A DNA stretch of 64,000 bases from Acidobacteria bacterium 13_1_40CM_65_14 (GCA_001917905.1 MNEX01000136.1:10711-74710); one strand, 5' to 3'. Shown: positions 2,087 through 31,020, numbered from the stretch's first letter. The notes: generated by a model from the sequence alone, not told the origin. Translations and numbers: made by a program.

Positions 2087-2218
2087 CTTGCGGATTGAAC
2101 CGCAGTCCGGAAAACCTGCGGCACATTACAGGATCTGCTTAGCGCTGCTGCCTTCCGGCCCTGACGCGGTTCGCAGTCTGGAATTGCACAGGTTCCGGAC
2201 CGCGGTGCAATCCGCAAG
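2087..2218 (-). ncRNA. ffs: Signal recognition particle RNA (small/4.5S type)
   Basis: Minus strand reads ...GCGUCAGGGCCGGAAGGCAGCAGC..AGCAGAU.., the conserved domain IV motif with a GGAA tetraloop. Long closing helix: cttgcggattg..ggtccggaacctg pairs with caggttttccggac..caatccgcaag. Usual position upstream of dnaX. Confidence 0.85.
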
Positions 2219-3127: not shown

Positions 3128-3230
3128 GGGGAGAAAGGATGGATGGTCAGGGCGGGATGGGCAGGATGGGCCGGAAAGAACTCGCAGCTTTCCATCCCGC
3201 GCCTATCCCGCCTTTCCTGCCCTTCCTGCC
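3128..3230. repeat. Intergenic hairpin repeat (GGGATGG-type arms)
   Basis: ggcgggatgggcaggatggg ... ccatcccgcgcctatcccgcc. Begins right at the SOD stop. Confidence 0.65.
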
Positions 3231-7369: not shown

Positions 7370-7595
7370 TGACGTTCACCCCGGCGGCCACGCGAAGTGG
7401 GTGCGAAGCCCACACGGTCCCGCCACTGTAAGCGGCTAGCGACACGTCAGCAGACGTCACTGGGATGGGACGGTCTAAAGACCGTCCCCTACAACGCGTC
7501 GATATAAGACGCCGGTAGGCGACGGCCTTCAGGCCGTCGCGACTGGGAAGACAGACGTGCCGCGCTGATCCGCGAGTCAGGAAACCTGGCCATCG
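7370..7595 (+). promoter_or_regulatory. Cobalamin (B12) riboswitch
   Basis: GAAGTGGGTGCGAAGCCCACACGGTCCCGCCACTGTAAGCGG core, CACTGGGA...ACTGGGAAG, and B12-box-like GAGTCAGGAAACCTGGCC. Lies directly upstream of a TonB receptor and BtuCDF-type genes. TATACT at 7348 is a possible -10. Confidence 0.75.
7467..7540. repeat. REP-like double hairpin inside the riboswitch variable loop
   Basis: gggacggtctaaagaccgtccc ... gcgacggccttcaggccgtcgc, joined by ctac...gtag. Flanked by cACTGGGA (7458) and gACTGGGA (7541). Confidence 0.6.
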
Positions 7596-7638: not shown

Positions 7639-9891
7639 ATGCGCACGTCCCGCCTCTGGCGGCTGGCTGCGGCCTGCCGTCCATCTCTTCACATCACACT
7701 CGTCACGCTGACACTGCTCGGTCACGCTGTTTCGACAGCCGCCGCCGATCGCGAGGCGTCAGGCACGGTCGTCGATCAATTCGGACAAGCGCTGCCGCGC
7801 GCGTACGTGCGGCTGCTGGATCAGCGCGGCTCGGAAATCACCGCGACGTTCGCCGACCAGACCGGTCGCTTTCGTCTGAACGCGTCGAGCACTGACTGCC
7901 GGATTGAAGCCTCGCTCACCGGCTTCGCGACGGCGAGCGTGCCGTGCGGCGCGCAACCGGCACGCATTGTCCTCGCCGTCGCCCCCGTGCGCGAGACGGT
8001 CGTCGTCAGCGCGACGCGGACCGAGGCGCCCGCCGATCAAGTCGGCGCGAGCGTGACGACCTTCACGGCCGACGATCTCGCGCACCGGCAGGTGCCGCTC
8101 GTCGCCGATCTGCTGCGCGCGTCGCCGGGCGTCATGGTCGTGCGAACCGGATCGCCCGGCGCGGTGACGTCGCTCTTCGTTCGCGGCGGCGAGAGCAACT
8201 ATAACAAGGTGCTGCTCGACGGCATCCCGCTCAACGAGCCGGGCGGCACCTTCAACTTCAGCAATCTGACGACCGACAACCTGGAGCAGATCGAGATCGT
8301 CCGCGGCGCGCACTCGGCGCTCTTCGGGTCGGACGCGATGGCCAGCGTCATCCAGCTCGTGACGAAGCGGCCCGATCGATCCGGCGGCCGGCCGCACGCG
8401 GCGTTGTCGTTCGAGGGCGGCACGTACGATACCTTTCGCGGCAACGCGTCGGTCTCCGGCGCCTCGGGCCGATTCGATTACGTGCTGGGCGCACAGCGGC
8501 TCAACACCGACAATCGTGCGCCGAACAGCCGCTTCGAGAACACGACGCTGTCGGCGAACCTCGGCGTCTCGCTCGGTCACGACGCGATCCTGCGCTTCAT
8601 CGGACGCGGCGAGCGGGAACACGTCGGGACGCCGGGGCAAACCGCATTCGGACGCCCGGATCTCGATGCGTTCTTCGCGCGACGTGACGGCGTCGGTGGA
8701 CTGTCGTTCGACCAGCAGCTCACGGCGTCGTTCCGCCAGCGCGCCGCGTACTCGCTGACCGCGTCGAACCAGCAATCGACGAATCTCCTGCTCGACCCGC
8801 CGTACACGCCGCGCTTCGGCAGCCGCGCGGCACCGTTTCAGTTCTCCGACTTCAGATTCGACAGCCGCACGAACCTCCATCGTCATCACGCCAGCTATCA
8901 GGGGGACTGGCGCGTGACCGGCGATGCCTCGTCTGGTCAGCATCTCCTGAGCGTGCTGGCGGACTGGGACGGCGAGCGCGCGACGCTCGAGAATCGGCTG
9001 ACGCCGACGCGCACCGACGCGGCGCGGAACAACTTCGGATGGTCCGTGCAGCATCAGGCGCTGTGGCGGCGCGTGTTCGCCACCGCCGGCGGCCGCATCG
9101 AGCGCAACGACAGCTTCGGGACCGCGGCGGTGCCGCGTGGATCGATCGTGTTCGTCGCGCGATCGTCGAACGGCGCGGTCGGTGAAACCAAGCTGCGCGC
9201 CAGCGCGGGACTGGGCATCAAGGAGCCGACCGTCCTCGAGTCGTTCAGCCCCTCGCCGTTCTTCCGCGGCAATCCGGATCTCGAACCGGAGCGGTCGCGG
9301 ACGGTTGACGCGGGAATCGAGCAACGCTTCGCGGCCGATCGCGCGAAAGTCGAGCTGACCTGGTTCGACAATCGTTTCGAGAACAAGATTTCGACGCGGA
9401 CGACCAACCCCGCGACATTCGAGGCGCAGTACTTCAATATCGGCTTGTCGCGCGCGCGCGGCGCGGAACTGTCGCTCGACGCTGCGCCGGCGAGGGGACT
9501 GCGCGCCCGCGCCGGCTACACCTTCCTCGCGTCGAAGATTCTCGAGAGCACCGCGCCGAACAACGTCGTGCTGCAGGCGGGCAACTGGTTGTTCAGGCGG
9601 CCGCGGCATTCGGGATTCGTCGGCGCGACGTGGGTCTGGAGCCTGTTGAGCGCCAACGTCGACGGCGTGTTCATCGGCCGCTACGTCGACAGCGACTTCT
9701 CGTCGCTGCAGCCGCCGATCCTCACGAACGACGGCTACACGACGTGGAACGCGCGCGTTGGCTGGAGAGTGTCGCGGCAACTGACAGGTACGGTGTCGAT
9801 CGACAACCTCGCCGACGCGGAGTACATGGAACCGCTCGGGTATCCGGCGCTACGCCGCGCAATCCGTGCGGGCGTCCGCGTCGCGTTCTAA
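7639..9891 (+). CDS. TonB-dependent outer-membrane receptor (BtuB-like)
   Basis: 750 aa. Signal peptide, plug domain (ETVVVSATR... DLLRASPGV.V), C-terminal barrel ending RAGVRVAF. Downstream of the B12 riboswitch. Confidence 0.9.
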   Translation: MRTSRLWRLAAACRPSLHITLVTLTLLGHAVSTAAADREASGTVVDQFGQALPRAYVRLLDQRGSEITATFADQTGRFRLNASSTDCRIEASLTGFATASVPCGAQPARIVLAVAPVRETVVVSATRTEAPADQVGASVTTFTADDLAHRQVPLVADLLRASPGVMVVRTGSPGAVTSLFVRGGESNYNKVLLDGIPLNEPGGTFNFSNLTTDNLEQIEIVRGAHSALFGSDAMASVIQLVTKRPDRSGGRPHAALSFEGGTYDTFRGNASVSGASGRFDYVLGAQRLNTDNRAPNSRFENTTLSANLGVSLGHDAILRFIGRGEREHVGTPGQTAFGRPDLDAFFARRDGVGGLSFDQQLTASFRQRAAYSLTASNQQSTNLLLDPPYTPRFGSRAAPFQFSDFRFDSRTNLHRHHASYQGDWRVTGDASSGQHLLSVLADWDGERATLENRLTPTRTDAARNNFGWSVQHQALWRRVFATAGGRIERNDSFGTAAVPRGSIVFVARSSNGAVGETKLRASAGLGIKEPTVLESFSPSPFFRGNPDLEPERSRTVDAGIEQRFAADRAKVELTWFDNRFENKISTRTTNPATFEAQYFNIGLSRARGAELSLDAAPARGLRARAGYTFLASKILESTAPNNVVLQAGNWLFRRPRHSGFVGATWVWSLLSANVDGVFIGRYVDSDFSSLQPPILTNDGYTTWNARVGWRVSRQLTGTVSIDNLADAEYMEPLGYPALRRAIRAGVRVAF

Positions 9892-25982: not shown

Positions 25983-26610
25983 CGCGCGGCGGAGTTTCGC
26001 GGAGCGTCTGCCAGAGATACCACGACGCGACCGATCGATACGGACGCCACGCTTCGCCCATTTTCAGGATGCGCTTCGGATCGGGACGCTTGCGGAGCCG
26101 ATAGAGGCGCTGAATCGCATTGACGATGCCGAGGTCGCCCGCCGGCAGGACGTCCGGGCGATGAAGCCGGAACATCAGAAACATTTCGGCCGTCCATCGG
26201 CCGAAGCCTTTGACCGACGTCAGCCGCTCGATGACCAGGTCGTCAGGCAATGCATCGAGCTCGTCGAGATTCAGCCGGCCATCGGCGATGCGCGCGGACA
26301 GATCGCGCAGATACCCGATCTTCTGTCCGCTCAAACCGACTCCGCGTAGCGTCGGGTCATCCAGCCCATCAATCGCCGCCGCGCTCGTGATTTGGTTGTC
26401 CGGAAACAACGCCGCGAACCTTCCGAAGATCGTCGCGGCCGCTTTGGTTGACAGCTGTTGACTGACGATCGCTCCGATGAGCGCGGTGAGATGGTCTTTG
26501 CGCTGGCGCTCCGCCATGCGACACGCCCCGATGCGCTTGATCGCTTCGGCAAGAATCGGATCGCGCCGCATCAAGAGACGCCGCGCGCGCTGGTAATCCG
26601 CCTCTGTCAT
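25954..26610 (-). CDS. DNA-3-methyladenine glycosylase II-like (HhH-GPD, AlkA family)
   Basis: IVSQQLSTKAAATIFGRF ... LTSVKGFGRWTAEMFLMF..RPDVLPAGDLG. Confidence 0.85.
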   Translation of the reverse strand: MTEADYQRARRLLMRRDPILAEAIKRIGACRMAERQRKDHLTALIGAIVSQQLSTKAAATIFGRFAALFPDNQITSAAAIDGLDDPTLRGVGLSGQKIGYLRDLSARIADGRLNLDELDALPDDLVIERLTSVKGFGRWTAEMFLMFRLHRPDVLPAGDLGIVNAIQRLYRLRKRPDPKRILKMGEAWRPYRSVASWYLWQTLRETPPRGTKNSKLRT

Positions 26611-27302
26611 TTCATCGACGCCGTCAAGGTCACGCGTGCGTGGATTTCGATGAGTCCGGGCTCGACCGGCGTCTGCGCCGGGCTCTCGGCCGTGCGGGCC
26701 ATCGTCATCATCGGCCTCGGTGGCATGATGCCGCTATCGCGCGAATCCTCGATGCGCAACACGCGATCGATGGCACGGCCCGCGCCCGATGCCGCGGCTT
26801 CGGCGCGTGCACGGGCGTCGGCGACGGCGAGTCGCAGCGCTTCGCGTTCGACGCTGTCGCGATCCTGCAGATCGAACCGGATGCCGCTGACCGACGTGGC
26901 GCCCGACTGTACGACCGCGTCGAGCATCTCACCGGTCCGCGCGATGTCGTCCACGCGGACTTCGATGCCGTTGCGCGCCACGAACTCGCGCAGCACGCGC
27001 CGGCCCTGCACGAAGTCGAACTCCTGCTGGAGGTCGTAGCCGGTCGTACGGATGGCGTCTTTCGCGATGCGCGCCTGCGTCAGCCGCTGCTGGACCGCGG
27101 TCATCGCCTCCGCGTTCAAGCGCTGCGCGTCACGCGGACTCTTCGAGCGCGTCTCGACGCTCACGGTGACGAACGCGCGGTCGGGCGCACGACGGACCGT
27201 CGCCTCGCCAACCGTCACGACGACCGGACCCTGTGGCTGCGCCGGCTCTTGAGCGGCGACGGCGCAGGCCAGGGCGATCCAAACGACTGCTATGAGCCGC
27301 AT
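26607..27302 (-). CDS. SIMPL/DUF541 periplasmic protein
   Basis: MRLIAVVWIALACAVAAQ signal, then VTVSVETRSKSPRDAQRLNAEAM ... GIRFDL.D......AL..AV.DARARAE. Confidence 0.8.
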   Translation of the reverse strand: MRLIAVVWIALACAVAAQEPAQPQGPVVVTVGEATVRRAPDRAFVTVSVETRSKSPRDAQRLNAEAMTAVQQRLTQARIAKDAIRTTGYDLQQEFDFVQGRRVLREFVARNGIEVRVDDIARTGEMLDAVVQSGATSVSGIRFDLQDRDSVEREALRLAVADARARAEAAASGAGRAIDRVLRIEDSRDSGIMPPRPMMTMARTAESPAQTPVEPGLIEIHARVTLTASMK

Positions 27303-28081
27303 ACGATCCGGAACCCGATGCTGTGCGCGTAGGTGTCCGGCGGAACCTTGTGACGATACGCACATCGAAGCATCGACACGTCGTCGTTCACCCAGGAACC
27401 GCCACGCACGATGCGCATGCTGCCGGTCGCGAGGCCCTGAGGGTCGCGCATCTCGCCGAGCCCATAGTAGTCCGCGCTGTACCAGTCGGACACCCATTCC
27501 CAGACATTGCCCGACATGTCGTAAAGGCCGTATGCATTGGGCGAATAGGTGCCGGTCGGACGCGTGCCGCGCTCCCGTTTGAACGACGGGTCCGTCAGGT
27601 AGTTGCACCGCGACGAATCGATGTCGTCGCCCCACGGATAGCGCTGACCTTCGAGGCCGCCGCGCGCCGCTTTTTCCCATTCCGCTTCGGTCGGCAGGCG
27701 CACGACGCGTCCCAGCGAATCGGACAGCCACCGACAGTAGGCCTGCGCATCGTCGTAGCGCGTGAGCACCACGGGATGACTGCCGTGACCGGCCGGCGGA
27801 TTGCCCTCCTCCCAGACGTACGGCGCCGCGAGCTCGCGGAACATCGAATCGCGGCCGCCGAGCGTCACGAGCGGCAGGCCGCGGATCGACGGCGCCGGAT
27901 AGCCGGTCTCGCGGATGAATCGCGCGTACTCGTCCTGCGTGACCGCGAAGCGGCTGATGAAGAATTCGCTGACGAAGATGCGATGAACGGGACGCTCGTC
28001 CTGTTCGAAGTCCGGCGCGCCCATCAGAAAGTCGCCGGCGGGAATCCGCGCGAGGTTCGGGGTTGTCGCGAGCGTCATCAT
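27290..28081 (-). CDS. Formylglycine-generating-enzyme family protein (SUMF1/FGE-sulfatase domain)
   Basis: IPAGDFLMGAP...ERPVHRIFVSEFFISRFAVT ... RLPTEAEWEKAARGG ... GNVWEWVSDWY ... RIVRGGSW. The start is uncertain (28081 versus 28159). Confidence 0.8.
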   Translation of the reverse strand: MMTLATTPNLARIPAGDFLMGAPDFEQDERPVHRIFVSEFFISRFAVTQDEYARFIRETGYPAPSIRGLPLVTLGGRDSMFRELAAPYVWEEGNPPAGHGSHPVVLTRYDDAQAYCRWLSDSLGRVVRLPTEAEWEKAARGGLEGQRYPWGDDIDSSRCNYLTDPSFKRERGTRPTGTYSPNAYGLYDMSGNVWEWVSDWYSADYYGLGEMRDPQGLATGSMRIVRGGSWVNDDVSMLRCAYRHKVPPDTYAHSIGFRIVCGS

Positions 28082-28157
28082 GCCTTCGGGCGCGGCCGTG
28101 GTGATCGCCCGTCTGTCTGCACTTGTGTCCAAAGCGGTGAGTATATAGTCTGCGCTC

Positions 28158-29342
28158 ATGAAACTCGAACAGTTTGCGATGGAACGCATGCAATCCACCT
28201 ATGAAAACCAGGTGGAGTTCAACCTGTCGGAGAGCGGCGTGCAGCCGCTGCGCCTCGCCGAGCTCGTCGACGATGAGGCTGCACGCAACGCGCTGATGAC
28301 TGAAGCGCTCCGTTATACACAGTCGAACGGCACTGTGCCCTTGAGGTCGGATATCGCCGCGCTGTATTCGGGGGCGGACGCGGATCGCGTGCAGGTCACC
28401 AACGGCGGATCGGAAGCCAACTACATCACGACGTGGCACCTCGTCGAGCCGGGCGATGAAGTCGTGCTGATGGTGCCGAACTACATGCAGACGTGGGGTC
28501 TGGCGCGCGCGTTCGGCGGCATCGTGAGAGAGTGGCCGCTCGTCCCCGCCGAAGCCGCACGCGGCGAAGGCGGGCGCTGGCGGGTCGACATTGATGCGCT
28601 CGCTCGTCTGGTGTCGTCGCGAACGAAGCTGATCATCATCTGCAATCCGAACAACCCGACCGGCGCACGCATCGACGCGGCGGATCTCGACGGCATCGCC
28701 GCGATTGCGTCACGGCACGGCACGTGGATTCTCTCGGACGAGATCTATCGCGGAGCGGAGCTCGACGGCCGCGAGACGCCGTCGATGTGGGGCCGCTCGG
28801 ATCGCGTCATCGTCACGAGCGGTCTGTCGAAAGCGTACGGACTGCCGGGACTCCGGATTGGCTGGATCGTCGGACCGCCCGCGACCGTCGCGTCGCTGTG
28901 GTCGTATCACGATTACACGACCATTTCGCCAGGCGCGCTCAGCGATTTCCTGGCGCGGCGCGCGCTCGCGCCCTCGCACCGCGCCCGCATCCTCGCGCGG
29001 ACGCGGAAGATTCTGAACGAGAACTTTCCCGTCATCGCGCAGTGGCTTGACGCGCACGGCGGCCTCTTCAGCTACGCGCCGCCCGACGCGGGCGCCATCG
29101 TGTACGTCCGCTACCACCATCCCATCAACTCGACGGATCTCGTCACCAGGCTGCGCGAGCAGAAAAGCGTGCTGATCGTCCCGGGCGATCACTTCGGCAT
29201 GGACGGCTATCTGCGAATCGGCTTCGGCGACGATGTCGAGTACCTGCGGAAGGGATTGAATCGGCTGGATGAGCTGTTGACGGAGCTGGTCCGGCTGAGG
29301 CCGGACACCACCGGAACCACGGCGCCAACCGTTGCCCGGTGA
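28158..29342 (+). CDS. Class I/II PLP-dependent aminotransferase
   Basis: 394 aa. NPNNPTG ... SGLSKAYGLPGLRIGW (PLP-lysine motif). Confidence 0.85.
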   Translation: MKLEQFAMERMQSTYENQVEFNLSESGVQPLRLAELVDDEAARNALMTEALRYTQSNGTVPLRSDIAALYSGADADRVQVTNGGSEANYITTWHLVEPGDEVVLMVPNYMQTWGLARAFGGIVREWPLVPAEAARGEGGRWRVDIDALARLVSSRTKLIIICNPNNPTGARIDAADLDGIAAIASRHGTWILSDEIYRGAELDGRETPSMWGRSDRVIVTSGLSKAYGLPGLRIGWIVGPPATVASLWSYHDYTTISPGALSDFLARRALAPSHRARILARTRKILNENFPVIAQWLDAHGGLFSYAPPDAGAIVYVRYHHPINSTDLVTRLREQKSVLIVPGDHFGMDGYLRIGFGDDVEYLRKGLNRLDELLTELVRLRPDTTGTTAPTVAR

Positions 29343-29460
29343 GGTTCGATCTCGTTCTCGTTTACTCGGGAGATCGCGATCGTCCAGCGCGGCGGGAACC
29401 TGACGCAGACGGCCTACGCGCTCGTCTCAGATTTAGTGGCTATTGCTAATCTGGTGGCCC

Positions 29461-29706
29461 CTACCCCCCGGCGTTCGCGCGCCAGTCGGCAATCGCGGTC
29501 ATGAGCGCCGGCTCGTCGAAACCTTTGATCGTGCGATCGCCGAATACCGTGACCGGAATCGTACGGAATCCGCGCGCGATGAGATCGCCGTACGCGCGAT
29601 CGTCCTCGTCGACGTTGTACGCCGTGAACGGCACACCTTCGCGTGAAAGCAACGCTTTCACCTGTTCGCAGCTGCGTCAGGCGCTGCCAGCGTAGACGAT
29701 AATCAT
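29461..29706 (-). CDS. Glutaredoxin-like (NrdH/YruB-type) protein with in-frame TGA at the first active-site Cys: candidate selenoprotein, or nonsense pseudogene
   Basis: ATG 29706 gives MIIVYAGSA-[TGA 29679..29677]-RSCEQVKALLSREGVPFTAYNVDED...TIPVTVFGDRTIKGFD, i.e. a U-x-x-C in place of C-x-x-C. The ORF track reports only the 66-aa part after the TGA. Confidence 0.5.
29643..29661 (-). promoter_or_regulatory. SECIS-like stem-loop downstream of the in-frame UGA
   Basis: mRNA: UGA-CGCAGCUGCGAACAG-GUGAAAGC-GUU-GCUUUCAC. Perfect 8-bp stem, 3-nt loop starting with G, loop 23 nt from the UGA. Confidence 0.4.
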
Positions 29707-29715
29707 CTGTTCATT

Positions 29716-31020
29716 ATGCCGTCACTCGATGGAATCACCGTGCTCGACCTGACGCGCGTGCTGTCGGGCCCGTACTGCGCGATGATGCTCGGCGACATGG
29801 GTGCGCGCGTCATCAAGATCGAACAGCCAGGTAAAGGCGACGACACGCGCGCGTGGGGGCCGCCGTTTCTGCACCCCAGCGCGCACAAACCGCGCGCTGG
29901 GGACCCCGGCTTCCACCCCAGCGCGCACAAACCGCGCGCTGGGGACCCCGGCTTCCACCCCAGCGCGCACAAACCGCGCGCTGGGGACCCCGGCTTGGAA
30001 GGCGAGAGCGCGTACTTCCTCAGCATCAACCGGAACAAGGAAAGCGTCACGCTCGACTTCAAGCATCCCGAGGGCCGCGCGATCCTCGATCGCCTCATCG
30101 CCAAGAGCGACGTCCTGGTCGAAAACTTCCGTCCAGGCACGCTGGCCAAGATGGGACTCGACTACGCGTCGCTGGCGCCGAAGCATCCACGGCTCGTGTA
30201 CGCGTCGGTGTCGGGCTTCGGGCAGACGGGCCCGCGCCGCACGGAGCCGGGCTATGACGCGGTGATCCAGGCGGAAGGCGGGCTGATGAGCATCACCGGC
30301 GCACCGGACGGTCCGCCGTATCGACTCGGCGTCGCGATCGCGGACATCGTGTCGGGCATGTTTGCCGCGTATGGCGTCGTCACGGCGCTCTTTGCACGCG
30401 AGCGCACCGGCCGCGGCCAGATGGTGGACGTCGCGATGCTCGACGCCGTCGCCGCGCTGCTGACGTACCAGGCCGGCAATTACTTCGCGAGCGGCAACGT
30501 GCCCGCGCGGCTCGGCAATCGCCACCCGAGCATCGTGCCGTACGAGACGTTCGCGGCCGAGGACGGCGAGTTCGTGCTCGCGGTCGGCAACGAAGACTTG
30601 TGGCGCCGCTTCTGCGAGGTGGCCGAGCTCGATCTCGGCGAGCGCTTCGCCACGAATCGTCAGCGGGTCACGCAATACGACGGGCTGCGCCCGCTGATTG
30701 CCGACGCGCTTCGGCGTCACACGCGGCAGTACTGGATCGAGCGGCTGACGGCAGCCGGCGTCCCGTGCGGATCGGTCCGCAATCTGCAAGAGGTGTTCGA
30801 CGATCCACAGCTCGGCGCGCGAGCGATGATCGCCGAGCTCGAACATGCGACGATCGGTCCACTGAAAATGCTCGGCGTGCCGGTGAAGCTGTCGGAAACG
30901 CCCGGCGCCGTGCGGACGCCGCCACCACGGCTCGGCCAACACACGGACAGCGTGCTGCAGCACGATCTCGGTTTCGACACCGACGCCATCACGCGGCTGC
31001 GCGCGCAGAAGGTTGTCTAA
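29716..31020 (+). CDS. Family III CoA-transferase (CaiB/BaiF)
   Basis: LDGITVLDLTRVLSGPYCAMMLGDMGARVIKIEQPGKGDDTRAWGPPF ... SAYFLSINRNKES ... VENFRPG ... SGFGQTGP. Confidence 0.9.
   Translation: MPSLDGITVLDLTRVLSGPYCAMMLGDMGARVIKIEQPGKGDDTRAWGPPFLHPSAHKPRAGDPGFHPSAHKPRAGDPGFHPSAHKPRAGDPGLEGESAYFLSINRNKESVTLDFKHPEGRAILDRLIAKSDVLVENFRPGTLAKMGLDYASLAPKHPRLVYASVSGFGQTGPRRTEPGYDAVIQAEGGLMSITGAPDGPPYRLGVAIADIVSGMFAAYGVVTALFARERTGRGQMVDVAMLDAVAALLTYQAGNYFASGNVPARLGNRHPSIVPYETFAAEDGEFVLAVGNEDLWRRFCEVAELDLGERFATNRQRVTQYDGLRPLIADALRRHTRQYWIERLTAAGVPCGSVRNLQEVFDDPQLGARAMIAELEHATIGPLKMLGVPVKLSETPGAVRTPPPRLGQHTDSVLQHDLGFDTDAITRLRAQKVV
29872..29997 (+). repeat. 3 x 42-bp tandem hairpin repeat, in frame within the CoA-transferase
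   Basis: caccccagcgcgcacaaaccgcgcgctggggaccccggcttc x3. Encodes HPSAHKPRAGDPGF x3. Each unit holds an 11-bp perfect stem, ccccagcgcgc/gcgcgctgggg. Confidence 0.95.

Follow-up and report, generated by a model that had tools for sequence, protein, structure and literature searches.

A probable selenocysteine-encoding glutaredoxin/NrdH-like gene with a SECIS-type hairpin in a Vicinamibacterales (Acidobacteriota) bacterium

A short minus-strand gene (29461..29706) in Acidobacteria bacterium 13_1_40CM_65_14 very probably encodes a selenocysteine (Sec)-containing glutaredoxin/NrdH-like protein of 81 residues and carries a SECIS hairpin within its coding sequence, the host being a member of the Vicinamibacterales (Acidobacteriota). 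The gene was encountered in a 64,000-nucleotide stretch of DNA, referred to here as the window, where a first-pass annotation had read it as a candidate selenoprotein gene. That reading is now strongly supported by a TGA shared by 49 of 49 homologous genes, by protein-coding evolution upstream of this codon, by conservation of the hairpin at the RNA level, and by a control set of Cys-encoding homologues in which the hairpin is absent.

Reading frame, fold, and database annotation of the redoxin gene

Translation of the minus strand from an ATG at 29706 yields the frame MIIVYAGSA-TGA-RSCEQVKALLSREGVPF...WRANAGG-TAG, in which RSCEQVKALLS follows the internal stop, RANAGG precedes the terminal TAG (29463..29461), and 81 sense positions are obtained if the TGA is decoded. 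The TGA is codon 10 (U10, 29679..29677) and opens the active-site motif U10-R-S-C13 (UxxC, 29668..29679), as placed by alignment to the CxxC of solved structures. When Cys is substituted at this position, the product matches the Pfam Glutaredoxin family (PF00462) over residues 2-58 and from model position 1 onward (E = 3.5e-11, 43.6 bits, cut-off 22.9), and in alignments the TGA takes the place of the first active-site Cys in both 7c10, a glutaredoxin, and 1h75, the NrdH of E. coli. Coordinates, the PF00462 match, and the 7c10/1h75 alignment therefore agree with the original claim of a TGA at the first Cys of CxxC in a glutaredoxin/NrdH-like frame, and codon periodicity is seen on both sides of it. 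That the UGA occupies the catalytic Cys position is shown computationally. Because the Pfam and PDB alignments both start at residue 2, the complete fold needs the N-terminus. A T49-I-P51 loop (29554..29562, minus strand), which we take to be the cis-Pro loop of the thioredoxin fold, lies opposite the active site and corresponds to the xVP motif in 7c10 and 1h75; R48, T49, and P51 do not vary across the protein alignment.

The product was also scored against curated family models. The best of them, the YruB-type TIGR02196, gives 50.8 against a cut-off of 88.55, followed by the NrdH model TIGR02194 (44.6 against 85.75), NF007657 (36.2 against 131), and the Uxx-star models NF041212 and relatives (33.1 against 66), all below cut-off. 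The Clostridium Grx1 structure 4tr0 is also matched (E = 5.7e-6), more weakly than NrdH or 7c10.

The mechanical ORF list for the locus holds a single entry, a 66-aa ORF (29461..29661, minus strand) starting at GTG 29661, so that the gene had indeed been missed by the ORF track, as first proposed. This ORF lacks strand beta-1 and the active site, and as judged from the alignments it is a truncation artefact of gene callers, predicted to be a catalytically dead fragment. The same truncation pervades public databases. A search of 5.8 billion proteins retrieved at least 562 relatives (clusters at 90% identity), of which the best 120 were inspected. Among these 120 of 562, with lengths of 56-94 aa, none extends upstream of the V/M-K-x-x-L-S point, most begin exactly at the internal GTG point and a few slightly downstream, and none contains the N-terminal segment or a U. 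A representative search with the 66-aa ORF as query returned 87 representatives of 50%-identity clusters; most of them, down to ~40% identity, likewise start where the truncation lies, and a minority are full-length Cys forms. More distant, Cys-type homologues with CxxC at this site (P0138, P0160, P0183, and others) complete a Sec/Cys pair. All of the best 120 of 562 relatives are mis-annotated as a catalytically dead fragment of 61-76 aa. The family counts at least 562 clusters and belongs to a bacterial group that is among the most abundant in soil; correcting its annotation would reveal a selenoprotein, and thus selenium dependence, in Vicinamibacterales.

Several variations on the architecture were observed in passing. 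Glutaredoxin-PDZ fusion proteins (P0186, P0194, P0197, and P0203; ~150-166 aa, from other metagenomes) start at (M)VKEFLS and are probably TGA-truncated Sec forms of the fused architecture. In-frame runs of DVV/NVV triplets, up to ~9 copies, occur in close relatives of the redoxin, namely in L006 (~3150-3200) and in P0014, P0015, P0039, and P0066, where they sit in the loop before I-R-G-F-D; the window gene has none. These runs look like a 9-nt repeat expansion in a surface loop. At its C-terminus, the window gene stops at a TAG (29461-29463) where close relatives read CAG and run on for ~7 residues (GGQGPPDSQ). The frame past this TAG (29440-29460, minus strand) still reads GPPD, and the C-terminus looks like the product of a recent shortening.

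Conservation of the UGA codon and of the hairpin downstream

The comparison set comprised the window and 42 species genomes (43 sequences) together with six distant metagenomic relatives, 49 genes in all. The 42 loci came from a scan with one genome per species, and nearly all are labelled Vicinamibacterales or Acidobacteriota MAGs; two Vicinamibacterales MAGs share ~85% DNA identity with the window locus. Two contigs with the same gene and synteny bear other labels, Betaproteobacteria for L029 (JBLMXQ010000032.1) and Solibacteraceae for L037 (CAYQRM010000115.1), and have probably been mis-binned or mis-labelled, which is preferred here to a transfer of the gene.

All 49 genes have TGA at the aligned codon, and none has TAA, TAG, TGC, or TGT. 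Orthologues, for which the first-pass annotation had considered both Cys and TGA, therefore carry TGA in the window, the 42 genomes, and the 6 relatives alike, and Cys in none. The six distant relatives share the TGA at 40-60% identity, in unrelated metagenomes and on contigs of 57-71% GC. The second Cys of UxxC is invariant in 43/43 genome sequences and present in all six distant relatives, and the two middle residues vary (RS, RA, RP, QS, and others). In 42 of 49 sequences the UGA is followed by C; UGA-C is the weakest termination context in bacteria.

Evolution of the codons ahead of the TGA follows a protein-coding pattern. Over codons -8 to -1, variability (entropy) amounts to 0.73, 0.51, and 1.05 at codon positions 1, 2, and 3, and single-base differences divide into 1663 synonymous and 1017 non-synonymous ones, a pattern shared with the sequence beyond the hairpin. 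Strand beta-1 (IIVYAGSA), which is covered by the Pfam and PDB alignments, is encoded by these codons, and they do not overlap the divergent neighbor gene, whose ATG lies 9 nt beyond. It is shown computationally that the nine codons upstream of the TGA are under protein-coding selection in the same frame and that reading continues through the UGA.

A genome-wide reassignment of TGA was considered and excluded: TGA ends 29 of the 52 other modelled genes in the window, and no coding signal is found beyond those stops. Further TGA-interrupted genes were sought in the window with a codon-usage gene model, which replaced a GC3-based screen because antisense frames pass the latter, making it too permissive; no convincing second candidate emerged from the 64-kb window.

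Downstream of the UGA, a 15-nt spacer (CGCAGCTGCGAACAG, 29676..29662, minus strand) leads to a perfect 8-bp stem closed by a GTT loop, GTGAAAGC-GTT-GCTTTCAC (29661..29643, minus strand; as RNA, GUGAAAGC-GUU-GCUUUCAC), with the 5' arm at 29661..29654, the loop at 29653..29651, and the 3' arm at 29650..29643. These coordinates were verified and bear out the stem, loop, 15-nt spacing, and UGA-to-loop distance of 23 nt initially described. The element is encoded by codons V16-K-A-L-L-S21, and its first base is that of the GTG at 29661 from which the 66-aa ORF starts. The length of the spacer is constant, with no indels, across all aligned homologues.

Folding yields a dG of -8.6 kcal/mol for the window hairpin and -5.9 to -7.1 kcal/mol for the bare hairpin in most orthologues. 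Because the 76-nt region of the window alone folds no better than GC-matched dinucleotide shuffles (z = -0.42), the case rests on comparison with other sequences. In the 43 genome sequences, the Val, Leu, and Ser of the hairpin arms are encoded by GTG, CTT, and TCA, respectively, in 43/43 cases each, and the arm Lys is AAA or AAG (36/7), which turns an A-U pair into G-U; elsewhere in the protein, invariant residues each draw on 3-4 synonymous codons. Two of these arm codons are rare in the window's genes (CTT, 4.6% of Leu; TCA, 5.6% of Ser), and the probability of the combination, given the amino acids, is ~3e-4 per single genome. Across 33 diverse sequences, 97% of stem cells are paired, and the closing pair is A-U in 18, C-G in 7, G-C in 1, and unpaired in 7. 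The covariation score was matched in 0 of 500 shuffles, and slid registers pair far worse. The seven core pairs are invariant save for one column with an A-U to G-U wobble and one U.C mismatch in a distant relative (L045). They never change on both sides, i.e., they are frozen without covariation, so classical covariation is limited to the one closing pair. Evidence at the RNA level comes mainly from the freezing of synonymous sites together with the Cys-form control. The G-U of the loop is invariant in 49/49. No lower helix around the hairpin was supported, RNAalifold recovering the hairpin only; a fuzzy search of the window and the loci for further copies matched only the palindrome's own reverse strand; and no Rfam model covers the element.

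The Cys-form control is provided by three homologues (P0138, P0160, and P0183; loci L051-L053) that have TGC at the aligned codon. At the hairpin site they encode V-K-Q-Y-L-S (TTG TCG), V-K-Q-H-L-S (CTA TCC), and V-K-H-Y-L-N (CTC AAC), and the homologous 19 nt fold with a dG of 0, -0.8, and 0 kcal/mol, compared with -5.9 to -8.6 kcal/mol in the TGA forms. The protein sequence therefore does not by itself give rise to the hairpin, since Cys-type genes encoding V-K-x-x-L-S/N are unstructured here. With the TGA in 49/49 genes, the frozen synonymous sites, and its absence in Cys forms, the putative SECIS element shows itself to be far beyond chance. Selection of the 19-nt candidate element as RNA, in strict co-occurrence with the TGA, is shown computationally; the stem-loop, whose conservation in orthologues had been at issue from the outset, is kept there at the RNA rather than the protein level.

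The published bacterial SECIS consensus specifies an upper stem of 4-16 bp, a loop of 3-9 nt with the pattern N1-G-[G|U]-N-N2, a UGA-to-loop distance of 16-37 nt, and an MFE of at most -7.5 kcal/mol (PMC13188914). Stem length (7-8 bp) and UGA-to-loop distance (22-23 nt) in the family lie within this model, as does the loop, which is GUU or N-G-U-N-N with N1:N2 being A-U, C-G, or G-C. The earlier claim that distance and loop fall in the bacterial range thus holds for the family as well as for the window gene. By free energy, the window hairpin (-8.6) lies below the -7.5 limit, and the bare hairpins of most orthologues (-5.9 to -7.1) are slightly weaker than it; this limit may have been meant for a longer element. 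Overall, the hairpin agrees with the bacterial SECIS model as published, with a free energy that is borderline for the family.

Decoding of the UGA and competing explanations

A mechanism modelled on the bacterial pathway summarized in PMC13188914 would begin with SelB-GTP, loaded with Sec-tRNA(Sec), binding the apical hairpin with its invariant loop G-U. Once the UGA enters the A site, the hairpin would be positioned at the mRNA entrance, and SelB would hand in Sec at position 10 ahead of release factor 2, with the weak UGA-C termination context presumably helping insertion. In the folded product, the U-R-S-C active site would face the conserved T-I-P cis-Pro loop. The attacking nucleophile is expected to be the U10 selenolate, with C13 in the resolving role, and the redoxin would cycle between selenolate/thiol and selenenylsulfide states while reducing disulfides or mixed disulfides.

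Components of the Sec machinery were sought in the window and in 42 loci of 6 kb each. Neither tblastn with E. coli SelA, SelB, and SelD nor, for tRNA-Sec, ARAGORN and Rfam returned a match in this material (the window plus ~250 kb of related loci), a sample that is uninformative for genomes of several Mb. No second selenoprotein gene was seen in the window or the related loci. Sec use has precedent in some Acidobacteriota: three selenoprotein families were described in Acidobacteria in 2006 (PMC1794560), Occallatibacter riparius served as a Sec-utilizing test genome (PMC12013277), and Sec-type hydrogenases occur in Acidobacteriota MAGs (PMC13582414). For Vicinamibacterales, our literature search found no report of selenoproteins or Sec machinery.

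The hairpin GUGAAAG-NGUNN-CUUUCAC could be more than an ordinary SECIS element because it is almost invariant across proteins of ~40% identity and contigs of 57-71% GC. It might represent a sequence-specific recoding module that travels with the redoxin gene between lineages, or the UGA might be decoded by an allo-tRNA or a tRNA(Sec)-like tRNA-Cys rather than by SelA/SelB/SelC/SelD. We regard this idea as very unlikely; if true in either form, a dominant soil phylum would be using a recoding route not yet described for that phylum.

A rival reading, in which the hairpin directs recoding of the UGA to a residue other than Sec, is very unlikely in our estimate. The inserted residue might be, for example, Cys brought in by a tRNA(Sec)-like tRNA-Cys together with SelB, or else Ser/Cys from an allo-tRNA of Acidobacteria acting as an opal suppressor. 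Candidate tRNAs of this kind exist, as the tRNA(Sec)-like SelC* tRNA-Cys has been discussed as a possible opal suppressor, and 8/4 and 9/3 allo-tRNAs, maybe acting as nonsense suppressors, are known from Acidobacteria (PMC5389517). The empty search for Sec machinery in the window and related loci and the literature, with no Vicinamibacterales report, would also suit such a reading. However, the phyla from which SelC* genes were reported are Firmicutes, Thermodesulfobacteria, Nitrospirae, and Proteobacteria, and Acidobacteria are not among them (PMC5389517); a general opal suppressor conflicts with the use of TGA as the main ordinary stop (29/52 window genes). Were the product a Cys protein, TGY would serve equally well, leaving no reason for a TGA and a costly hairpin in 49/49 genes. 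It is because TGA otherwise behaves as a normal stop, and because the TGA and hairpin are kept instead of a TGC, that recoding to a non-Sec residue is rated low.

That the real gene is the 66-aa ORF from GTG 29661, with the upstream segment and the hairpin forming a 5' leader that masks the start and regulates translation, is highly improbable. It is true that the invariant GTG falls within the hairpin's 5' arm and that the ORF is called by every pipeline, but the ORF product would be devoid of strand beta-1 and of the whole active site. Nor would a leader account for nine upstream codons that evolve as coding sequence in the same frame or for the x-x-C kept after the TGA, and the Val-Lys at this point is a family feature found also in Cys forms that have no hairpin. 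A pseudogene, the alternative initially offered, in which a recent one-base change turned TGC or TGT into TGA in an ordinary glutaredoxin gene, is compatible with the window sequence alone but carries a negligible probability and is refuted by the comparative data: the same TGA (49/49) recurs in 42 other species genomes and in six relatives of 40-60% identity, the sequence on either side of it is under purifying selection, and the best 120 of 562 database proteins start at or past the internal GTG, 15 nt beyond the TGA.

Genomic context and comparison with known systems

Neighboring genes give a few clues to the role of the probable Sec redoxin. A divergent family-III CoA-transferase gene adjoins it in 42 of 43 loci, its start codon 9 nt away, and in 36 loci an aminotransferase gene of class I/II is found in convergent orientation. 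Further downstream, the redoxin strand also carries an FGE-sulfatase-family gene in 27 loci, as well as a SIMPL/DUF541 gene; in the window, this FGE-sulfatase/SIMPL region spans 26610-28198 (minus strand). The FGE-family gene comes directly after the redoxin gene in L030 and L031 (from ~3260 on), and the SIMPL gene (1300-2016) does so in the Cys-form locus L051. The FGE-sulfatase/SIMPL pair may be a functional partner, which is a hint and not evidence; the pair and the divergent CoA-transferase are the only contextual hints to function. No nrd genes occur among the conserved neighbors. The start codons of the redoxin (minus strand) and CoA-transferase (plus strand) genes stand back to back, 9 nt apart (29706-29716), and both promoters must therefore sit inside the opposite gene; a search around the redoxin gene found neither a sigma-70-type promoter nor an intrinsic terminator.

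Other features of the window were recorded as well. The CoA-transferase gene (29716-31020, plus strand) contains a 42-nt unit repeated 3.0 times at 100% identity and in frame (29872-29996), which adds three copies of HPSAHKPRAGDPGF to the family-III CoA-transferase. The unit is a palindrome, CCCCAGCGCGC-ACAAACC-GCGCGCTGGGG, and resembles the insertion of a REP or miniature mobile element into a coding region. Elsewhere, the window holds a small bacterial SRP RNA (2102-2200, minus strand, 78.7 bits) and a cobalamin riboswitch (7394-7584, plus strand, 59.4 bits) upstream of a 750-aa ORF (7639-9891).

The finding leaves knowledge of how selenocysteine is encoded unchanged and will not surprise a specialist. 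It can serve annotation and the study of selenium biology among soil Acidobacteriota, and the very simple, sequence-constant SECIS would offer an easy key to more selenoprotein genes, and to the cognate SelB, in such genomes. Like the E. coli fdhF element and the bSECISearch consensus, it is a stem-loop within the ORF, immediately 3' of the UGA, with an apical G-U and with sizes and distance inside the model. It differs from the fdhF type in being short and simple (7-8 bp), with neither a conserved lower helix nor a bulged U. The minimal SECIS element of E. coli starts 11 nt after the UGA, and the window hairpin begins 15 nt past it. A further departure from the E. coli/bSECISearch paradigm is that the window-type sequence is near-constant across proteins of ~40% identity.

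At the protein level, the window product shares with NrdH (1h75; TIGR02194), the YruB family (TIGR02196), and 7c10 a size of ~80 aa, the fold, a CxxC that corresponds to UxxC, the V-K-x-x-L-S helix, the xVP cis-Pro loop, and a G-F-D/R motif. Relative to NrdH and YruB, it has Sec in place of Cys, scores under the family cut-offs, and has no ribonucleotide reductase genes nearby. Resemblance in sequence to NrdH and YruB would favor a partner of the thioredoxin-reductase type over glutathione. Uxx-star glutaredoxin-like proteins (NF041212, NF041114, NF041211, NF047338) likewise combine Sec with a glutaredoxin-like fold, at weak similarity (33 bits); as their family names indicate, their Sec sits at the C-terminus, three residues ahead of the stop (U-x-x-stop), whereas that of the window protein is residue 10 of 81.

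The closest precedent in kind is the Sec-containing glutaredoxin (PF00462, UxxC), an experimentally verified selenoprotein family (PMC13188914) represented by a Geobacter sulfurreducens protein listed in PMC13188914 and PMC1794560 and by the characterized Grx1 of Clostridium oremlandii (Kim et al. 2011; PDB 4tr0/4tr1). By its PF00462 domain and UxxC motif, the predicted window product belongs to this family. With the C. oremlandii and G. sulfurreducens proteins it has in common the Pfam family, a Sec placed first in UxxC at the N-terminus of helix 1, and a UGA followed by a SECIS hairpin just downstream inside the coding sequence. It is distant from them in sequence, with U-R-S-C rather than a CPYC-type motif, and stands closest to YruB-type/NrdH glutaredoxin-like models instead of classical GSH-dependent glutaredoxins. 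Known Sec-glutaredoxins come from anaerobic Clostridia or Deltaproteobacteria, whereas the window clade resides in Acidobacteriota of aerobic soil. The putative selenoprotein gene thus represents a new, large, and unannotated clade within an already known kind of Sec-glutaredoxin.
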